DNA of 51,134 nucleotides from a virus (IMGVR_UViG_2724679172_000007), one strand, 5' to 3'. Positions 3,811-31,588 are shown, counted from the first letter of the stretch. Numbers and translations are program-made. Notes: generated from the letters alone by a model not told the origin.

Positions 3811-6800
3811 TTAATCCTCAAGCAGAGCATCCAGCGACTGGTCATTAATAGTTGTGCTCGCACGTGGTCGCGGCTGCGGCTGCGATGTTTTGACAACATT
3901 ATCCGGATCGCCTTTTGTATTGTTCTTGTTCACATTCAGCAGATCGTTCAGGATAGAGCAGATGTTATCCAGCGCCTTCAACATAGCAGGATCGTTATTT
4001 ATAGTGTCAGTAGTTAATGGTTGTCTTATTCCGCTTCGTGCGAGATCGGTTACAGTAGGGAGTTGTGGCGGCATAGCAAGAAAAGGTTCTTGCACAGCTG
4101 AAGCAGAGCCAAATATGGCGTTATTGGCACCAGTTGCTATTCCCCTAATGCTATTAGCGGTTTGTTGAATCCCCCCATTCAGCCAGTCTCCAACATTTCT
4201 TGTTAATGGGCTAATAGCTCGCGCAATCGCACTATTCTGCCCAGTAGACTGCATTACAAGATCGTTCAATATCCCTGTACTATCAATCCCCCCAACAAGT
4301 CGTGAAAGGTTATCGCCAACGGCAGGAATTACTGCGGTTCCTGTCTGTTTAAGCCCTGACACCGTGGAATCAAATAGCGAACCAAAGAAGCTCTTATCCT
4401 CACCTGTAACCACCTTGTAGCCGTTGTCATAAATCTGCACATCACTTGGTGCCGTGATAGTTCGTTTTCCAGAGGTAACTACTGGCGCAGCTCCCGCCAT
4501 AGCCTGGTTGATTGCCAGAGCCTGCTCCTGCTGTGGAGTTTTCGGTGCTGGCGCTGCAGACGAAAAGCCCGCCATAGCCTGGCTGATTGCCAGAGCCTGC
4601 TCCTGCTGTGGGGTTTTCGGTGCTGGCGCTGCAGACGAAAAGCCCGCCATAGCCTGGCTGATTGCCAGAGCCTGCTCCTGCTGTGGGGTTTTCGGTGCTG
4701 GCGCTGCAGACGAAAAGCCCGCCATAGCCTGGCTGATTGCCAGAGCCTGCTCCTGCTGTGGGGTTTTCGGTGCTGGCGCTGCAGACGAAAAGCCCGCCAT
4801 AGCCTGGCTGATTGCCAGAGCCTGCTCCTGCTGTGGGGTTTTCGGTGCTGGCGCTGCAGACGAAAAGCCCGCCATAGCCTGGCTGATTGCCAGAGCCTGC
4901 TCCTGCTGTGGGGTTTTCGGTGCTGGCGCTGCAGACGAAAAGCCCGCCATAGCCTGGCTGATTGCCAGAGCCTGCTCCTGCTGTGGGGTTTTCGGTGCTG
5001 GCGCTGCAGACGAAAAGCCCGCCATAGCCTGGCTGATTGCCAGAGCCTGCTCCTGCTGTGGGGTTTTCGGTGCTGGCGCTGCAGACGAAAAGCCCGCCAT
5101 AGCCTGGCTGATTGCCAGAGCCTGCTCCTGCTGTGGGGTTTTCGGTGCTGGCGCTGCAGACGAAAAGCCCGCCATAGCCTGGCTGATTGCCAGAGCCTGC
5201 TCCTGCTGTGGGGTTTTCGGTGCTGGCGCTGCAGACGAAAAGCCCGCCATAGCCTGGCTGATTGCCAGAGCCTGCTCCTGCTGTGGAGTTTTCGGAGTAG
5301 AAGGGGATACTTGATCTCCCGGAAGTAGATCAATGATTTCTGTATCGTGATTAACAGTGCGTTTTTGTTGTATGGCTGTTGCGATATCAGCCACTTGAGA
5401 AGCTTTTTTAAATCCAAAAGATTTACCGGTTAAGCCGGATATCTTTTCAGTAAGAGCCTGATCCATTCCTTTCGCTTTTTCGGAAAGCGAAGATATAGAA
5501 CCAAACGAAGTAGCCAACGCAAAATCCTTTACCAGGTCCAGACTTGTTCCAGCAAGGCTGGTAGCCGCGCCGCCAAATAAATTACTTGCACCACTGATTC
5601 CGCTTTCATTTATTGCGATTAACCGCTCAAGCAAACTCGATGGAGAGCCGGTATTAACATCAGCGTTCTCTGGATTAATCGGTTGTGGTTGGTTACCTGT
5701 TTTTTGTGGCTTTTTGACTGCCTGGGCATGTTGTGCAACCTCAATTGGCTGTTGTGTTGCTGTCGGAACGGCATTCAAAACTGGTTGAGCTGGAGATTTT
5801 CCATTAGCATATTTTACCTTGCGACCAACACTATATTGCGAATCGCGGGCAATTAGCTGACCACCATTTTCTTTCTGAATTTTATTAATCCGCGCCAATG
5901 TTTCATCAGAGAATTGCCCCTCCCATCGACCAGTGTTTGTGTTAAATGCTCCAAGTGCGTTCTTAATGAACTCATTATTAACTGCCGGATTTCCGCCTTC
6001 TTTCGTCGCAATTGCACGAACTAATTGCGTCATAACCTCTGGTTTGCTGACATCTATTTTTTCATTAGGCGATACACCAAGATATTTACTGACGTTATCA
6101 ATATATTGGTTAGTATTGTTCTCATTTGGCGGTGCCCATTTTGAAATGATGCTGGATACCGTCTGTAACTTCTGATATCCCGCTGCGGCACTGGTGCCGT
6201 TGTAATAGCTGGAAACCTGGTTTGCCAGTGCCCTGATCCCTTCTTCAGGTGTGTTAAATCGCGCAAAACGTTGTTCACCTTTTGCATTTGGCGATTCCAG
6301 CGTCGCCCCTTCCTGGTTGGCAAAAACAAGATTGCCGAGATTATTATTTCGGTAATTGCGGTTTTTAGCGTTGCTGCCGCCAATATTCAGATCCGCTGCA
6401 ATGGTGTTGTTGGCAGGTGCACTAAATTCAGTTGGAGAAGTATACCCGTGCTCACCAACTCCATCCTCGCCATTACGCCCACCTTGTAATTGTTCACCTA
6501 GAGAATGAATCGCATCGACAGTTTTTTTGGTGCCGTCTTCAACAGCTTTTTTTACTTGTTTCGTGTTTTCGTCAGTGGATAAAAATGTATCCTTAAGGCT
6601 ACCAAAAACAGATTTGGTGATATCTACCGCGCCGTTAACACCACGAGCAATATCTCCGGTATCAAAATTCTGAAGTTTTTCACCTGCTCTTTCAAATCCT
6701 AGCGCAGAAATTCCTTTCCCTATCAAGTTCGTTGCGCCCGACACCAAGCCCCCCATATCGAGCACATTAGCTGTTGCGTAAGCCGTTTTTTGCTGTTCGG

Positions 6801-8391
6801 ATACAGCATCATCGTCACTTAATCCAAAGGCTGCCTTTTGCGCATCTGTATCAGTGTAACCATCTATAGCGTCATATCCCGCCATAGCCAGCGATCCGAT
6901 GATAGGGATAGCTCTTGCAGCTGTAGAAGCAGCTGATTTAACACCTATTTTTGCAGCACTTTTGAGGGCTACGGATTCGGTTTTTTTCTTTGCAACAGTT
7001 TCACCTGTTTTAACTGTGGCCTCTTCGGCAACAACACCTGCTGGCTTAACTGCCTTTGCTGTGTTTTTTGTTTCTTTAGCAATACCCTTAGATGCGTCGC
7101 TTGTGGTGCTGATGTCTTTGGCTTTACTAACCTTTGTTTTAACAGTCTTTGCAGCTCCAGCACCAGCTCCAGCAGCAGCGGTTCCGGCAGCGGCTTTTTC
7201 ACCAACAGAAAGGGCTTTTTTCCCCAGATTGCGACCTTTCCTTTTCGGTTTGTTCCGTTTATTTTTACCAGCCTGATCGCCAATATTGATTTTATTTCTT
7301 CTGCTTGCTCGATTTCTCCAGAGATCACTTAAGCCGAACTTATTCCCAGAAGATACTGATTTGCGTAGCTTAACTACTTCGTCGGAGACATTTTCCAGAC
7401 CATCAATTATTTTGTTGTCATTGGTCTGAAGAATTTTTGTTTGCTCTTCTACTGCTTGTGCTGATTTTGTCTCAACAGCATTATTAAATGCTGTTGCAGA
7501 GGTTGCTTTTTGAGTATTAACCACCGCCGGATAAGTGATAGCTGGAGATGTCGCTTTCGAAGGTGAAGCCTCACCTTTCCCCTTTTCTACCCATTCTTTA
7601 AGAGATTCTGCTTTACCTGTGATCTCTTTAGTAATGTCGTACATGCCGCGAGCAGCCATCCACAACGGACCACCAGCGCCAACACCTGCGGCATCTGTTA
7701 AAGACTCTTCACTGGAAGACTGATTGCCATCTACCCCTATAATGGAGCCTAATTTCCGGAGGAAGCCTTCTTGTAGTTTGGCGTCGGCCTTATGTGCTTT
7801 CTGCCATTCTTTTTTTCTGGCTATATCTTCGTTGTTTTTCTGGGATACAAAGCGTCCGTTACTATCCCGAAGCGGTCCTTTTTGGCTTTGGGGGGATTGT
7901 GGTTCAAGAGGAGCAGAATTAGCGGCTACTGGCACAGAACCTTTCAACTTTTGGGCTGACTGGCGTGATGACGCAAAATGAACGCGCTCTGATGTGTTGG
8001 TTGCAACAATGAGACGTTCTTCTCCGTTGTTGATCTGCGTCCTCCCTTTTTTCATCGGAAGGCGTTTTATATATGGGTTAGCTTGGGTGTTCTTGGCATC
8101 ATCAGAGACATAGGGTTCGCTTGCTATGAGTCTACGGGATAGTCTTTGACTTACTTTACCTTGATTTTCACCAAGTTGAGTTATAGACCCTCTACCAGAG
8201 AGAATGGCGTCTTTGATCTCAGCAAGAGCGTTAAGTTCGTTTGTGCTCGCCCCCTGAATAGCGTCAATTATTGCGATACGGTCTTTATTCTCTTTCAAAA
8301 TAACCTCTCTTTTGCCAGCGGCGATCAACGTTTCCCGGCTTGAGCTTTGTATTTTTCTTCCAGGGCTTTTGACATATGGAGTGCTCGCCAT
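3811..8391 (-). CDS. Tail tape-measure / structural injection protein (P1 Sit-like), with internal 25-aa tandem repeats
   Basis: 1526-aa ORF, Ala/Gly/Ser/Lys-rich and low-complexity; contains about 11 consecutive copies of KTPQQEQALAISQAMAGFSSAAPAP; followed by baseplate genes as in P1 (sit-pmgA-bplA-16-R-S). Confidence 0.6.
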   Translation of the reverse strand: MASTPYVKSPGRKIQSSSRETLIAAGKREVILKENKDRIAIIDAIQGASTNELNALAEIKDAILSGRGSITQLGENQGKVSQRLSRRLIASEPYVSDDAKNTQANPYIKRLPMKKGRTQINNGEERLIVATNTSERVHFASSRQSAQKLKGSVPVAANSAPLEPQSPQSQKGPLRDSNGRFVSQKNNEDIARKKEWQKAHKADAKLQEGFLRKLGSIIGVDGNQSSSEESLTDAAGVGAGGPLWMAARGMYDITKEITGKAESLKEWVEKGKGEASPSKATSPAITYPAVVNTQKATSATAFNNAVETKSAQAVEEQTKILQTNDNKIIDGLENVSDEVVKLRKSVSSGNKFGLSDLWRNRASRRNKINIGDQAGKNKRNKPKRKGRNLGKKALSVGEKAAAGTAAAGAGAGAAKTVKTKVSKAKDISTTSDASKGIAKETKNTAKAVKPAGVVAEEATVKTGETVAKKKTESVALKSAAKIGVKSAASTAARAIPIIGSLAMAGYDAIDGYTDTDAQKAAFGLSDDDAVSEQQKTAYATANVLDMGGLVSGATNLIGKGISALGFERAGEKLQNFDTGDIARGVNGAVDITKSVFGSLKDTFLSTDENTKQVKKAVEDGTKKTVDAIHSLGEQLQGGRNGEDGVGEHGYTSPTEFSAPANNTIAADLNIGGSNAKNRNYRNNNLGNLVFANQEGATLESPNAKGEQRFARFNTPEEGIRALANQVSSYYNGTSAAAGYQKLQTVSSIISKWAPPNENNTNQYIDNVSKYLGVSPNEKIDVSKPEVMTQLVRAIATKEGGNPAVNNEFIKNALGAFNTNTGRWEGQFSDETLARINKIQKENGGQLIARDSQYSVGRKVKYANGKSPAQPVLNAVPTATQQPIEVAQHAQAVKKPQKTGNQPQPINPENADVNTGSPSSLLERLIAINESGISGASNLFGGAATSLAGTSLDLVKDFALATSFGSISSLSEKAKGMDQALTEKISGLTGKSFGFKKASQVADIATAIQQKRTVNHDTEIIDLLPGDQVSPSTPKTPQQEQALAISQAMAGFSSAAPAPKTPQQEQALAISQAMAGFSSAAPAPKTPQQEQALAISQAMAGFSSAAPAPKTPQQEQALAISQAMAGFSSAAPAPKTPQQEQALAISQAMAGFSSAAPAPKTPQQEQALAISQAMAGFSSAAPAPKTPQQEQALAISQAMAGFSSAAPAPKTPQQEQALAISQAMAGFSSAAPAPKTPQQEQALAISQAMAGFSSAAPAPKTPQQEQALAISQAMAGFSSAAPAPKTPQQEQALAINQAMAGAAPVVTSGKRTITAPSDVQIYDNGYKVVTGEDKSFFGSLFDSTVSGLKQTGTAVIPAVGDNLSRLVGGIDSTGILNDLVMQSTGQNSAIARAISPLTRNVGDWLNGGIQQTANSIRGIATGANNAIFGSASAVQEPFLAMPPQLPTVTDLARSGIRQPLTTDTINNDPAMLKALDNICSILNDLLNVNKNNTKGDPDNVVKTSQPQPRPRASTTINDQSLDALLED
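4491..5295. repeat. Tandem direct repeat, 75-bp unit, about 10.7 copies, in-frame within the tape-measure-like gene
   Basis: Unit agcctggctgattgccagagcctgctcctgctgtggggttttcggtgctggcgctgcagacgaaaagcccgccat starts at 4501, 4576, 4651 ... 5251 (period 75); internal copies are identical, the first and last differ by 1-2 nt. Confidence 0.95.
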
Positions 8392-8445: not shown

Positions 8446-9267
8446 TTAATAATGGTTAGCCATCCATTCAGATCTAATTGATGGGATAAACTCTCTATTG
8501 AGAAAGGGGACGTACAGTGTGGTTGTCACATCTGCACCCTCCTTAGCGTTTTTGCAATGTTGCGGAGGCAGGATCAGTCGGCTTGAGCCTCTCTCAATAG
8601 ACATTTTCAGGCCGTGGCGTAGGTCTTTTTGCATAAGCTGTATGCGAGCCACAAGCGGGGTAAATTCGGTTTCAAGCGCCATGCTTTCAATGATGTCAAA
8701 GCGTCGGTTAGCGGCCTGCGTGAAGTCCTCCGGATCGTCTTCAAGCGCCGTGCATAAAGCGAGTTCAGCAATTCGCATCCGTGCTACGCCAGCACTGTAT
8801 TCGGGAGTTTTCATATCAGGAAGTGACGCTCGCATTCGTTCAAGGAGTTCCGCGCCTTTCCCGGTTAATGGTTTAAGTATCCAGTCAGTTGGTACTCCAT
8901 TTACTGGTACGTTGGTTTTCACGTAAGGAGGTACAGTGAGTATTTCTACTGTTTGGGCCAGGTCGCTCAGGTTAATATCTGCATGATGCGTATTACCGCA
9001 GTGACTGCACTCATAGGAGTAGGTCATTACTGCATCGGGGCGCGAATTAACAAATATCCACCAAAGAGCAGTTCTGCGGTCCTGAACTGTCCAGTTAGCA
9101 CTGTCGTTAATTTCACCATCCTGCATAGAGTTAAGGTACTCTGTAGTCGTTGCCTCATCTTCTGCCGGGTTCAGGTCAGAATATTTCAGCGCATCCTTCA
9201 CGGTAGGGGCGTGGAACTGAATTTCTGTCTCAGGATGGGAAGGCAATGGGAATTTTGGAATGTTCAA
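8446..9267 (-). CDS. Phage morphogenesis protein (hypothetical; Cys/His cluster CSHCGNTHH)
   Basis: 273-aa ORF immediately upstream of the tape-measure-like gene on the same strand. Confidence 0.4.
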   Translation of the reverse strand: MNIPKFPLPSHPETEIQFHAPTVKDALKYSDLNPAEDEATTTEYLNSMQDGEINDSANWTVQDRRTALWWIFVNSRPDAVMTYSYECSHCGNTHHADINLSDLAQTVEILTVPPYVKTNVPVNGVPTDWILKPLTGKGAELLERMRASLPDMKTPEYSAGVARMRIAELALCTALEDDPEDFTQAANRRFDIIESMALETEFTPLVARIQLMQKDLRHGLKMSIERGSSRLILPPQHCKNAKEGADVTTTLYVPFLNREFIPSIRSEWMANHY

Positions 9268-9374
9268 TTATTCCTCCGAAAAGCAGGTATCTGTTCATTT
9301 TCCAGAGGATAGGGAGTGTGTGATTTGCGATGGGGATTGAATGAAGATCTTTGCCGGTCGAGAAGCGATTATTG

Positions 9375-9630
9375 AGGGTGATTTTTACACCTTAAGTGAC
9401 GCTACTCACATATCCACAGAGTATTTTTATAAACCTTTTTCCATTTTTAATCCTTTTTAGATCCTTTTTAGGCGTCGCTGGAGCCAGTAGTGGCGCGGGC
9501 TGTAGAGGAGGCTGGTGTAAGATTTGCCCTCAATTAAATACGATCGGTGTAAGATTTGCCCTCAGAAGGTGTAAGATTTGCCCTCAAAAGGTGTAGTAAT
9601 TGCCCTCAAAGTGGTGTAAAAATTGCCCTC
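9375..9630. promoter_or_regulatory. Iteron-type replication origin region (incC-like): DnaA-box-like site, AT-rich stretch with GATC, five 19-bp direct iterons
   Basis: ATATCCACA at 9410-9418 (8/9 match to the DnaA box TTATCCACA); AT-rich 9421-9480; iterons GGTGTAAGATTTGCCCTCA at 9514, 9546, 9568, 9590 (variant) and 9612 (variant) on a 22-bp period, plus an inverted iteron-like copy near 9375-9391; immediately upstream of repA. Confidence 0.7.
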
Positions 9631-9655
9631 ACCATTTGAAGGATCACACAGGGTT

Positions 9656-10411
9656 ATGAACAGAGCGGAATTAACAGCAAAAGCCGTCAGCCTGATTGAG
9701 TCAGCGACACCTATTAGTCGTAGTCTGGCACAAGCCAATGAGATCACGGAGGCTGCTTATCACCTGACTCGCGACCAAAAGCGACTGTTGTTTATTGTGG
9801 TGGGAAGACTTCGCTATGCTTCTAAGGATGGCGTTCTTGGTTCAGGTGCCTGTGAGTTGACGGTCAACGAATATGCAGAGATGTATAATTTGCCCTCTGC
9901 TGAAGCCAGCAAGGATATTCGTAAGGCCATTTCAGGGCTTAGCGAGAAGAAAGTTACGATATATAACCCTGATGAATCGACCGAATCAGAAGACAGTTAT
10001 GAGTCTTATCCCTGGATGATTAAGGATGCCTATTCACCACGGCGCGGGACTTACATTATTCATCTTAATCCATATCTCATGCCGTTTTTTACTCTGCTTG
10101 ATAAGAGATTCACAAGGCTGAATTTTACCGAAGTATCTCGCCTTACAAATCCTTATTCTATGCGGCTTTATGAGTCCTTATGCCAGTACAGGAAGGATGA
10201 TGGAAGCGGCTTTGCCATACTTGGCGTCGAATGGATGCGGGAGCGTTATGGGTTACCAAAAAGCTATCAGCGGTATGCCGAATTTAAGAGAAGTTTTTTA
10301 ACGAAGGCTGTAGCAGAGATTGAAAAAAATACAAAAATGAAAATAGTCTTCTCAGAGGTGACGGAAGGCGGCAAAGTTACCAGGATAAAATTTACCTATC
10401 AGCAGTCTTAA
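9656..10411 (+). CDS. repA: Iteron-binding plasmid replication initiator RepA (Rep_3-like)
   Basis: ORF flanked on both sides by arrays of the same 19-bp iteron; start assigned to the ATG at 9656 just downstream of the last upstream iteron; architecture parallels P1 oriR (incC-repA-incA). Confidence 0.75.
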   Translation: MNRAELTAKAVSLIESATPISRSLAQANEITEAAYHLTRDQKRLLFIVVGRLRYASKDGVLGSGACELTVNEYAEMYNLPSAEASKDIRKAISGLSEKKVTIYNPDESTESEDSYESYPWMIKDAYSPRRGTYIIHLNPYLMPFFTLLDKRFTRLNFTEVSRLTNPYSMRLYESLCQYRKDDGSGFAILGVEWMRERYGLPKSYQRYAEFKRSFLTKAVAEIEKNTKMKIVFSEVTEGGKVTRIKFTYQQS

Positions 10412-10412
10412 G

Positions 10413-10704
10413 GGCAATTTTTACACCCCTCTCAAGGTGTAGAATTTGCCCTTAACGATCGGCAATTGAGGGCAATTTTTACATCTTAATTGCATGTATC
10501 TCGTTATTAGCAAGTTGTGTTTTTATATAACGTATTGATATGTAAGGATTATGTAAAAATCGCCCTCAACCAATATCGTGCGTATCGTGCATTCTTATTG
10601 CGCTTTTTTATTATCATTCACTGTGTTAACTGATTGATATTATTGAAATATGTAAAGAATGCCTTCATTGCTGATGGATTGATGATGTAAAAAATGCCCT
10701 CAAC
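10413..10704. repeat. Downstream iteron cluster (incA-like copy-control locus)
   Basis: At least six iteron copies in both orientations (agggcaatttttacaccc at 10413, ggtgtagaatttgccctta at 10436, tgagggcaatttttacatc at 10470, atgtaaaaatcgccctcaa at 10551, atgtaaagaatgccttca at 10648, atgtaaaaaatgccctcaa at 10686). Confidence 0.65.
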
Positions 10705-10792
10705 ATTGCGCTACCTTCCCTACCCGCTATCGTTGAGGTCGTGGGTGCTGACGGGAAATGAGCAACCCTCCAGCACACATAATTAAAGCTAT

Positions 10793-11500
10793 TCAGAATT
10801 TGATCACTCCACTCACAGCCCCCTTTAACGCGCTTGTAGCCATGCCAGCGGCACCGTTGACCAAAGCAGAAACACCTGAGCCTGCGGATGTGTATTTCTG
10901 GAAAGTGATTGGATATGACAAGAACTCTGACACCTGGTCTCGTGAGCGGGTGATTTCCCCAAGTTGAGTGGGGAATACGCGCATTTCCTCTTCCAGTTCT
11001 TTACCGCCATCCTGAGTTACCCGGTAGAGCCGGATCTTCATTAGATATTCAGGAGGAAGGTTTATTGTTCCGTCCGGGTTTGTCACGCGGGAACGACGCT
11101 CTTTGAACCAGTTCATGATCTTGCCGTCTTCGGTATCCCTTACGGTCATCGTGACTGGTCCGGCGGTGACGTAGGTTGGCTTGCTGAACTCTACGCTACC
11201 TATCACCTTGTTTTCTGTCTCGATATTTCCGCTGCTGTAGGTGATATCCTTCACGAACATATCGAAACCGTTCAGACCGTCCACTTCAACCGTCCACTGC
11301 CATCCCTGGGCGTAACGAATACGCATAGCGGCAGCAACAATATTTTTCCCGTAGGCAATATCGCTGCTGTAGTTCCCACTTACCCCGCCGCCGGATATTG
11401 CTTTATCCAGAATGTCGCTAATGAGGTTGCTGGTGAATGATTTTGTGTTAAATGACAGTGCGGTGGTCAACGTTCTGCCAACGCTGCTGAAAATACTCAC
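10793..11500 (-). CDS. Phage tail structural protein (possibly tail tube)
   Basis: 235-aa ORF in the minus-strand structural operon downstream of the sheath-like gene; no specific motif recognised. Confidence 0.3.
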   Translation of the reverse strand: MSIFSSVGRTLTTALSFNTKSFTSNLISDILDKAISGGGVSGNYSSDIAYGKNIVAAAMRIRYAQGWQWTVEVDGLNGFDMFVKDITYSSGNIETENKVIGSVEFSKPTYVTAGPVTMTVRDTEDGKIMNWFKERRSRVTNPDGTINLPPEYLMKIRLYRVTQDGGKELEEEMRVFPTQLGEITRSRDQVSEFLSYPITFQKYTSAGSGVSALVNGAAGMATSALKGAVSGVIKF

Positions 11501-20950: not shown

Positions 20951-21907
20951 ATGCGCATTTTTATCGATGATGGTTCAACCAATATCAAAATGCTGTGGGA
21001 GCACGACGGGGAAACTCGCACTCACATCAGCCCTAACAGCTTTAAGCGCGGATGGTCAGCAACATTTGGTGCGGGCAAGCCGTTTAACTATGTCATTGAC
21101 GACGAAAAGTATTCGTATGATTTGATCTCGCCAGATGTTCTGCCGACGAATAACGTGGAATGGCAATACAGCCCGCTTAACGTCCTGGCTGTTCACCATG
21201 CCCTGCTGACAAGTGGCATTGAGCCGCAGGAAGTAGAAATTGTGGTCACGCTGCCTCTGGCGGAGTTTTACGACGACGACGCGCAATACAATCTCGATAA
21301 CATCGAGCGCAAGAAAGCCAGCCTTATGCGCCCCGTCACGCTGAATAAAGGCAATGTGTTCACGATTAAGAAAGTTACGGTACGCCCGGAGTCTATTCCG
21401 GCAGGAATTGGCCTGTGCGACAATCTGAACCCTGCCCATTCTGTTCTTATCGTCGATTTGGGTGGAACTACCCTTGATGTTTCAATGGTCGCCGGGCAAA
21501 TGACGGCAGTTTCCCGTGTTTTTGGCGATTCGAATCTTGGCGTCTCTCTGGTTACCAGGGAAGTAAGGCAAGCACTTGCCAGAGCCAATACCGAAACGTC
21601 AAATTACAATGTCGATCAGCTCATTATTAACCGCCACGATGAAGATTATCTGAACGACAATATCAATGACCCATCAGCGATTGGTGATGTGAAAAAGGCC
21701 ATTGCCGCAAGCATTGACCGTCTGCGTACCCGCGTTCTTGATGTGATTGGCGACTTTAAAGGATATACGCATGTCATGGTGATCGGCGGTGGCGCACCGC
21801 TGGTGGCAGATGCAATTCGCGAGCAAGTTAATATTCGTGATGACCGTTTCTTCGTGGCGGATGACCCGCAACTTGCTCTTGTTCATGGCCTGAAAGCAAT
21901 CGGTTAA
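20951..21907 (+). CDS. parM: Actin-like plasmid segregation ATPase ParM/StbA
   Basis: Begins MRIFIDDGSTNIK and contains SPNSFK, NVLAVHHALLTSG, IERKKA, MPESIPAG, IVDLGGTTLD, YTHVMVIGGGA, closely matching plasmid R1 ParM as recalled. Confidence 0.85.
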   Translation: MRIFIDDGSTNIKMLWEHDGETRTHISPNSFKRGWSATFGAGKPFNYVIDDEKYSYDLISPDVLPTNNVEWQYSPLNVLAVHHALLTSGIEPQEVEIVVTLPLAEFYDDDAQYNLDNIERKKASLMRPVTLNKGNVFTIKKVTVRPESIPAGIGLCDNLNPAHSVLIVDLGGTTLDVSMVAGQMTAVSRVFGDSNLGVSLVTREVRQALARANTETSNYNVDQLIINRHDEDYLNDNINDPSAIGDVKKAIAASIDRLRTRVLDVIGDFKGYTHVMVIGGGAPLVADAIREQVNIRDDRFFVADDPQLALVHGLKAIG

Positions 21908-31285: not shown

Positions 31286-31588
31286 ATGAAAATAATTTCG
31301 GTAAAAACACTAAGGGATTTCTGGGCGAAGAATCCCGATGCAGAACAGCCATTAAAGGCATGGGTTGATGAAGCAACAAAGGCTGACTGGAAAAATCCGG
31401 CTGAGATCAAAGAACAGTACCGGACAGCCAGCATCCTTAAAAACAGGCGCGTGGTGTTCAATATTAAGGGAAATGATTACAGGTTAATTGTCGCAATTGC
31501 TTATCAGCGAGGATGGATGTTCGTTAAGTTTATTGGAACACATAAGGAATACGATGCCATTGAAGCGGATACAATAGAACTGGAGTAA
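31286..31588 (+). CDS. higB: Type II toxin HigB (RelE/ParE superfamily mRNA interferase)
   Basis: 100 aa; pattern KxLxDFW...KAW...WKNPAEIK...VFNIKGNDYRLI...FIGTHKEYD matches HigB toxins; toxin-first order with a downstream HTH antitoxin. Confidence 0.65.
   Translation: MKIISVKTLRDFWAKNPDAEQPLKAWVDEATKADWKNPAEIKEQYRTASILKNRRVVFNIKGNDYRLIVAIAYQRGWMFVKFIGTHKEYDAIEADTIELE

Follow-up and report, generated by a model that had tools for sequence, protein, structure and literature searches.

Why should a plasmid replicon lie on the plus strand between the minus-strand tail genes of a phage, and what kind of replicon is it? The question is raised by a locus in the viral sequence IMGVR_UViG_2724679172_000007, and "the window" refers here to the whole 51,134-nucleotide stretch of DNA that was analysed. 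A first-pass annotation of this DNA had recognised a repA gene preceded by five direct repeats, a DnaA-box-like site and an AT-rich stretch and followed by at least six repeats of mixed orientation, and each of these elements was recovered with the positions given below. Our analysis favours a reading, held at a probability of roughly 85% and built on sequence comparison, in which the locus would be the low-copy plasmid-maintenance (prophage) replicon of a D6-type phage-plasmid, would belong to the lineage of F ori2(oriS)-repE-incC and would be carried as an exchangeable cassette. The initiator gene and its flanks are arranged as follows.

8446-9267, minus strand: pmgB-like morphogenesis gene, the left flank (D6 orf41, 'similar to P1 pmgB'; a weak match to Pfam T4_baseplate)
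9656-10411, plus strand: repA, an intact ORF of 251 aa encoding a Rep_3 (WH1+WH2) initiator, homologue of F RepE
9882-9898, plus strand: iteron-like site TGTATAATTTGCCCTCT inside repA (18.6 bits, weight matrix), present in all relatives but within coding sequence
10793-11500, minus strand: tub-like tail tube gene, the right flank (D6 orf43, 'similar to P1 tub'; 50% identity to P1 Tub)

The first-pass description of a plus-strand replicon between minus-strand tail genes, dividing the tape-measure side from the tube and sheath side, agrees with this map. Beyond pmgB lies the sit/tape-measure gene, and beyond tub lie pmgC, bplB, pmgG, 21 and the sheath gene. The pmgB-like gene has a TTG start with GGAGGA (Shine-Dalgarno) 5' of it, both read from the sequence.

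The repA product belongs to the Rep_3 family (PF01051 and PF21205), with both winged-helix domains exceeding the Pfam gathering scores: Rep3_N matches at 2.9e-29 (102.7 bits, cutoff 22.4) and Rep3_C at 9e-16 (58.3 bits, cutoff 21.1). This points to a full-length initiator and not to the truncated or inactive RepA that the first-pass annotation had named as fatal to its proposal. At the protein level RepA is 100% identical to gp085 of Escherichia phage D6. It matches the PDB chains of RepE at E = 1e-73 to 4e-74 and shares 50% identity with F RepE over 228 aa, the two proteins being 251 aa each. Scored with the NCBIfam RepE equivalog model NF010305, RepA reaches 280.6 bits, below the cutoff of 342, and is thereby classed as a homologue rather than an equivalog. 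Details of RepE such as chaperone dependence and operator binding by the dimer may therefore not transfer.

Upstream of repA, the origin region contains the following elements.

9373-9389, minus strand: inverted iteron lying beyond the DnaA box as seen from repA (25.0 bits), kept in 7/7 F-type relatives
9410-9418, plus strand: DnaA-box-like site ATATCCACA, 8/9 consensus positions
9420-9470, no strand: AT-rich region of 51 bp (19.6% GC) with phased T5 tracts and one GATC, aligning with the F ori2 AT-rich region
9516-9532, 9548-9564, 9570-9586, 9592-9608 and 9615-9631, plus strand: five direct iterons, from repeat and weight-matrix scans

The 17-bp iteron consensus TGTAARATTTGCCCTCA has 12 matches at three mismatches or fewer in the 51-kb window, where 0.37 are expected; all 12 fall inside 9373-10702, and 0 of 100 shuffles reach that number. 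A weight matrix built from the iteron copies recognises 13 sites, 11 of them at 25 bits or above. The directly repeated 17-22-bp sites that adjoin rep in Rep_3 replicons are present here as a 22-bp tandem array, in which the five direct iterons are spaced 32, 22, 22 and 23 bp from start to start and the fifth ends 24 bp 5' of the repA ATG. A spacer of 70% GC separates this array from the AT-rich region, which has five T5 tracts at 8-12 bp intervals and is a probable DNA-unwinding element. The inverted iteron at 9373-9389 was missing from the repeats listed in the first-pass annotation.

A sigma-70 promoter scan of 9200-10850 returned a single candidate, within the 3' end of repA, and none upstream of the gene at the scan threshold. 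Read by eye rather than by the scan, an extended -10-like TGTAAAAAT lies within the fifth direct iteron. An Rfam scan of 9000-11000 at E <= 1 matched no RNA family and so gives no sign of an antisense-RNA control element.

A second set of iterons begins at the end of repA.

10409-10425 (minus strand, overlapping the repA stop codon), 10438-10454 (plus strand) and 10467-10483 (minus strand): proximal downstream iterons, at positions kept in relatives
10552-10568, 10651-10667 (weak, 16 bits) and 10686-10702, plus strand: distal downstream iterons, in a region of 31% GC
10578-10603, plus strand: a pair of overlapping terminator-like hairpins with a T run after them, from a consensus scan only

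The six downstream iterons follow the orientation order - + - + + +, and the hairpins between them are a possible repA terminator. Conservation of both arrays was read from an alignment of the inter-gene region with that of seven F-type relatives, whose identity to the window there is 84-99%; L021 (pSa1423-160k) was given no weight because it has many single-base indels there. In the seven relatives the iterons are 95.5% conserved, the DnaA box 100%, the AT-rich stretch 94% and repA 93%, against 82% for the remaining non-coding DNA upstream and 66% downstream, and the distal downstream iterons are conserved while their spacers diverge. Conservation so markedly above that of the surrounding non-coding DNA suggests that the iterons and the DnaA box are under selection. 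Near-matches to the DnaA box show no enrichment in the window (12 found against 11.5 expected); the site at 9410-9418 counts because its position aligns with the DnaA boxes of F ori2 and because it is invariant in the seven relatives. The 13-site layout, weak and intragenic sites included, is retained in D6 and in relatives L012, L019 and L020. In relative L013 an IS splits the last iteron from the others, and that iteron has one mismatch.

The first-pass annotation had likened this architecture to P1 incC-repA-incA, and the comparison stands for layout and fails for homology. P1 and the window share the order iterons-rep-iterons and a presumed control logic, and in both the first downstream iteron adjoins the stop codon. 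Both initiators are in the Rep_3 superfamily; the P1-type RepA of the E. coli plasmid NZ_CP066033.1 matches Rep3_N at 2e-6. Common descent with the P1 prophage replicon oriR/incC-repA-incA (IncY) nevertheless deserves hardly any credence. The 50% identity of RepA to F RepE contrasts with a best BLASTP segment against P1 RepA at E = 0.057, which is no real alignment, and a tblastn search of the window with P1 RepA gave no match. The iterons are unrelated (TGTAARATTTGCCCTCA in the window, the 19-bp GATGTGTGCTGGAGGGAAA in P1), and the cluster of five GATC repeats in P1 oriR has no counterpart in the window replicon. The only iterons of the P1 incC/incA kind are an exact core and a degenerate copy, which lie at 10740-10780, outside the working arrays. 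In P1 the replicon adjoins parAB and does not lie between tub and pmgB. Finally, a true P1-type cassette is present in relatives and is clearly different from that of the window.

By homology the replicon is instead a relative of F ori2-repE-incC (RepFIA), in a sister lineage rather than RepFIA proper. The two origins can be aligned at the DnaA box, at TATTTTTATAA and TTTTTAGATC and over the stretch that leads up to the first iteron, and they share the succession of DnaA box, AT-rich stretch and direct iterons at 22-bp spacing. The F iteron TGTGACAAATTGCCCTCAG has TTGCCCTCA in common with the window iteron, whereas the other half reads TGTAARAT in the window and TGTGACAA in F. In both, the second iteron array begins at the rep stop codon, but the downstream iterons are all inverted in F incC and of mixed orientation here. 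F ori2 has two DnaA boxes and four origin iterons (PMC13028717), while the window has one and five. F RepFIA also has an inverted-repeat operator between its iterons and the repE ORF; such an operator is absent from 9632-9655, the 24 bp between the last iteron and the ATG in the window.

Outside the D6 group the closest initiators, at 60-63% identity, are those of Pantoea sp. App145 pAPP145_3 (399 kb) and of an Erwinia aeris 93-kb contig. These Erwiniaceae replicons use a near-identical iteron, TGTAGnAnTTGCCCTCA, and share the DnaA boxes, the AT-rich stretch and the five direct iterons, the last of which stops ~25 bp short of the start codon. Within that short interval no palindrome like the F operator could be seen by eye. 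They differ from the window in having a second DnaA box and 7-8 downstream iterons that are all inverted, and no phage tail genes adjoin them.

The closest phage counterpart is the replicon of D6. DNA identity with D6 is 98.9% over the region, spanning its annotated 'replication initiation protein', and the D6 GenBank record describes gp085/orf42 as 'replication initiation protein ... putative plasmid replication initiation' and labels the surrounding genes pmgB, sit, tub, pmgC, bplB, pmgG, 21 and 22 after the P1 genes that they resemble. The two loci share RepA, flanking genes, orientation and the 13-site iteron layout; essentially nothing differs within the replicon, and the tub flank is 92.4% identical. 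The arrangement that marks a D6-type replicon, a gp085 orthologue between opposite-strand pmgB-like and tub-like genes, is thus the one found in the window.

The 1.45-kb cassette occurs in 111 PLSDB plasmids (108 non-mobilizable) from E. coli, Shigella and Salmonella; among the records listed, sizes are mostly ~80-97 kb. Most records matched by a 3-kb query share both flanking genes, and the best overall match, with 99.8% identity over 3 kb, is NZ_CP076307.1, a complete plasmid from E. coli. The first-pass annotation had called the placement unusual, yet this position is the standard one in phage D6 and in the 111 plasmids that carry the cassette. All cassette-bearing records examined were typed as MOB-suite rep_cluster_1704, the sole replicon type assigned to them except in one 216-kb cointegrate. 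That record, NZ_CP021720.1, was considered as evidence on IncFIA compatibility and is uninformative, being a cointegrate with IncFII and other replicons. A non-phage context was likewise considered for the identical RepA in NZ_CP027382.1 (36 kb), which proved to be a partial linear D6-like contig.

Earlier papers refer to the iterons of D6-like elements and to their replication and partition genes lying apart (PMC6799933; PMC7969092). Pfeifer et al. describe replication and partition in the D6 subgroup (P1-g2) as 'separated by 14 persistent genes' (PMC7969092), with which the ParM-like partition gene at 20951-21904 in the window agrees. Given the D6 annotation and these mentions, the replicon and its position are already on record, and the feature is a known, annotated and expected component of D6-like phage-plasmids. 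Our literature search, with the primary D6 genome paper outside it, returned no paper linking phage D6 with RepE, RepFIA or mini-F, no description of replicase exchange in the D6 subgroup and no replication, copy-number or incompatibility test of the cassette.

How, then, did a replicon come to lie between tub and pmgB? In P1, Cronobacter phage JK004 and two P1-like plasmids the gap between these genes is just 12-15 bp, and D6-type elements have ~1.5 kb of replicon in the same place. A Citrobacter plasmid with a D6-type tub has a junction without a rep gene, occupied by a 310-bp repeat-rich spacer, and in other isolates the same junction hosts an IS200/IS605 element and an icd-like/Rha-family regulator module. 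Comparison of the replicon location across related phage-plasmids, as the first-pass annotation had advised, places the replicon of D6-like elements in this tub/pmgB slot, which mostly holds the F-type cassette and in nine D6-like PLSDB plasmids with near-identical flanks holds a P1-type replicon. The narrow gap in P1-type phages and these nine relatives bear out the earlier suggestion of modular insertion.

In NZ_CP066033.1 (relative L011), one carrier of the P1-type allele, pmgB is 98.7% and tub 92.2% identical to the window genes. Its different replicon lies in the slot in the same orientation and encodes a 286-aa RepA that is 84% identical to P1 RepA. Of the 12 P1-type iterons in this cassette, five precede repA and seven follow it; a TTATCCACA box and a GATC cluster are also present. 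Alignment of the two alleles places the cassette boundary and the P1-type remains in the window as follows.

~9323/9324, no strand: left cassette breakpoint; homology of the F-type alleles (window, D6, L007) with the P1-type allele (L011) is confined to the DNA on its left
10740-10758, plus strand: degenerate P1-type iteron CGTGGGTGCTGACGGGAAA, 16/19 to the P1-type-allele iteron; in D6 and L019, absent in L007, L017 and L018
10766-10780, minus strand: exact P1-type iteron core ATGTGTGCTGGAGGG, 0 expected by chance, 13 bp from the tub stop codon

On the right side the F-type and P1-type alleles are homologous from ~10766, and the breakpoint falls in a P1-type iteron. The ATGTGTGCTGGAGGG core is colinear with the last incA-like iteron of L011 and matches annotated P1 incA iterons. 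E. fergusonii pEF-4 retains further P1-type iteron copies, and the deeper F-type lineage (L007, L017 and L018) has lost them. The whole unit, ~9324-10765, is a swappable cassette whose place between tub and pmgB stays fixed. Because the F-type cassette abuts leftover P1-type iterons, it probably displaced most of a P1-type replicon; the relics, rather than a dated tree, give this direction. On the most economical view the two alleles now pass between closely related backbones through recombination in the flanking tail genes; in support, the window pmgB shares 98.7% identity with its counterpart in the P1-type carrier and 81-93% with the pmgB genes of other F-type carriers. For the P1 subgroup, an earlier study describes IncY and p0111 replicases replacing one another at a fixed position (PMC7969092), and Pfeifer et al. 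proposed replicon swapping as a phage-plasmid escape from incompatibility (PMC10879196). The alternation of cassettes and the relic P1-type iterons are the only points here that are mildly new.

The relic iterons show that replicon decay has taken place at this site, and the window is only 51 kb of an element of ~87-92 kb, outside which part a second replicon could lie. The F-type replicon might on these grounds be seen as a passenger or decaying remnant in an element maintained by another replicon. We consider this very unlikely in view of an intact repA ORF that is identical across many complete circular plasmids, and of NZ_CP076307.1 and the other non-cointegrate cassette-bearing records examined, which are typed with this replicon alone. 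The conservation of iterons and DnaA box markedly above the surrounding non-coding DNA also speaks against decay, and neither P1 RepA nor P1 RepL has a match in the window.

The location among late genes could also suggest a lytic-cycle origin in place of a prophage-maintenance origin. P1 has an interrupted tail-gene block too: the immI region and repL, its lytic replicon, separate pmgC from pmgF/bplB. A lytic role here is extremely unlikely, however: a Rep_3 initiator with iterons and a downstream control array is a known design of low-copy plasmid replicons (F, P1; PMC13028717), and D6-like elements are reported with a separate repL (PMC6799933; bioRxiv 10.1101/2025.09.12.675607).

The low-copy maintenance replicon that we favour can be modelled on the mechanism of the F replicon (PMC13028717). 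By analogy with F, RepA monomers would bind the five 22-bp-phased iterons at 9516-9631, and RepA together with host DnaA at 9410-9418 would open the 20%-GC stretch at 9420-9470, where the host replisome would load for theta replication. Following F incC and P1 incA, the six downstream iterons and the inverted copy at 9373 would be the copy-number and incompatibility determinants that keep copy number low, acting through titration of RepA and through pairing (looping) with the origin iterons. The weakest step concerns repA expression. RepA bound to the iterons nearest the promoter probably represses its own gene, as happens in P1, whose PrepA lies within incC; we infer this because the iterons reach to 24 bp from the ATG and there is no operator palindrome.

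Whether the slot contributes more than a site of insertion is a separate question. In the P1 record LPsit, upstream of pmgC, is the sole late promoter annotated for the pmgC-tub-pmgB-sit run, and these genes, contiguous downstream of LPsit, are presumably one late operon. In D6-type elements the replicon splits the tub/pmgB gene run and is head-on to it, and late transcription may have to cross repA and the origin antisense to reach pmgB and sit. The unrelated F-type and P1-type cassettes sit in identical orientation in the slot. A search with a P1 late-promoter pattern, derived from two annotated P1 promoters, gave 3 matches in the window against 2.5 expected, none of them near the replicon. 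It is conceivable, and in our estimate doubtful, that the tub/pmgB position is itself functional, with late antisense transcription across repA and the origin stopping plasmid-mode replication and the relic iterons serving as a decoy. The leftover P1-type iterons at 10740-10780 might in that role bind P1-type RepA, as an incompatibility decoy against relatives carrying the P1-type allele. If the position is functional in this way, lytic onset would automatically shut down plasmid-mode replication via antisense late transcription.

Our results provide a model for how D6-like phage-plasmids maintain themselves as plasmids. A recent survey states that common plasmid-typing databases omit the D6 replication gene (bioRxiv 10.1101/2025.09.12.675607). 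The kinship with F RepE/ori2 supplies a ready mechanistic model, from which testable predictions follow on compatibility with IncFIA plasmids. Replicon swapping is illustrated compactly by the relic iterons and by the P1-type cassette that other carriers have in this slot. As the probable maintenance replicon, this cassette would determine the persistence of D6-like phage-plasmids in E. coli, Shigella and Salmonella and which plasmids can coexist with them.

The slot between the tub-like and pmgB-like tail genes, occupied in the window by the F-type replicon, holds a P1-type allele in the D6-like plasmid L011 (NZ_CP066033.1), whose flanks are near-identical to those of the window. There, positions 1323-2771 contain a P1-type repA with 84% identity to P1 RepA together with 12 P1-type iterons, an allele common to nine plasmids in PLSDB (MOB-suite rep_cluster_2221). 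P1-type sequence is also found beside tub in the window itself:

Window 10740-10780: an exact P1-type (IncY-like) iteron together with a degenerate copy, in the interval separating the final F-type iteron from the stop codon of tub.

This pair looks like a remnant of a displaced P1-type replicon.

The same junction has further contents among related elements. Citrobacter freundii L008 (NZ_CP114569.1), which has a D6-type tub, is without a rep gene between tub and pmgB, and the D6-like plasmids L012 (CP055626.1) and L013 (NZ_CP095127.1) carry additional modules:

L008 4703-5012: 310-bp AT-rich spacer with dense direct and inverted repeats (ATGTACAT, TGTATTTACA, TGTAATTACA).
L012 3233-4383: icd-like gene and a gene for a Rha-family regulator, with the relic iteron on one side and tub on the other.
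L013 2785-4432: IS200/IS605 element with tnpA plus another transposase gene, separating iteron 12 from iteron 13.

The repeat spacer of L008 could be a protein-binding array. A RepA identical to that of the window is encoded on L022 (CALWLV010000256.1), an 11-kb metagenome contig binned as 'uncultured Roseburia sp.'. Its neighbours there are D6-type sit, pmgB, tub, pmgC and bplB, at 95-99% identity. The contig almost certainly comes from an enterobacterial phage-plasmid and was placed in the wrong bin.

Iteron-like sequences also occur elsewhere in the window:

Window 9882-9898: within the repA coding region, 2 mismatches, 18.6 bits.
Window 31465-31481, minus strand: solitary sequence TGTAATCATTTCCCTTA, distant from the replicon, 14.6 bits.

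The first is retained in all relatives; RepA may bind it as an internal site, or its retention could simply reflect coding constraint. The second is probably a chance match.

Beyond pmgB, a further tail gene varies in length:

Window 3811-8391, minus strand: sit-like gene, 1526 aa.

It contains a tandem repeat at window 4493-5295 (75-bp, 25-codon unit; 10.7 copies; 99% identity). The product is 1526 aa in the window compared with 1260 aa in Escherichia phage D6 and 1414 aa in the near-identical complete E. coli plasmid NZ_CP076307.1, and the length of this putative tail-ruler/transglycosylase therefore differs among isolates.

Across window 8446-11500, identity to D6 is mosaic, reaching 98.9% for pmgB and 99.6% for repA but only 92.4% for tub. 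This pattern of sequence identity points to recombination inside the tail genes that flank the replicon.
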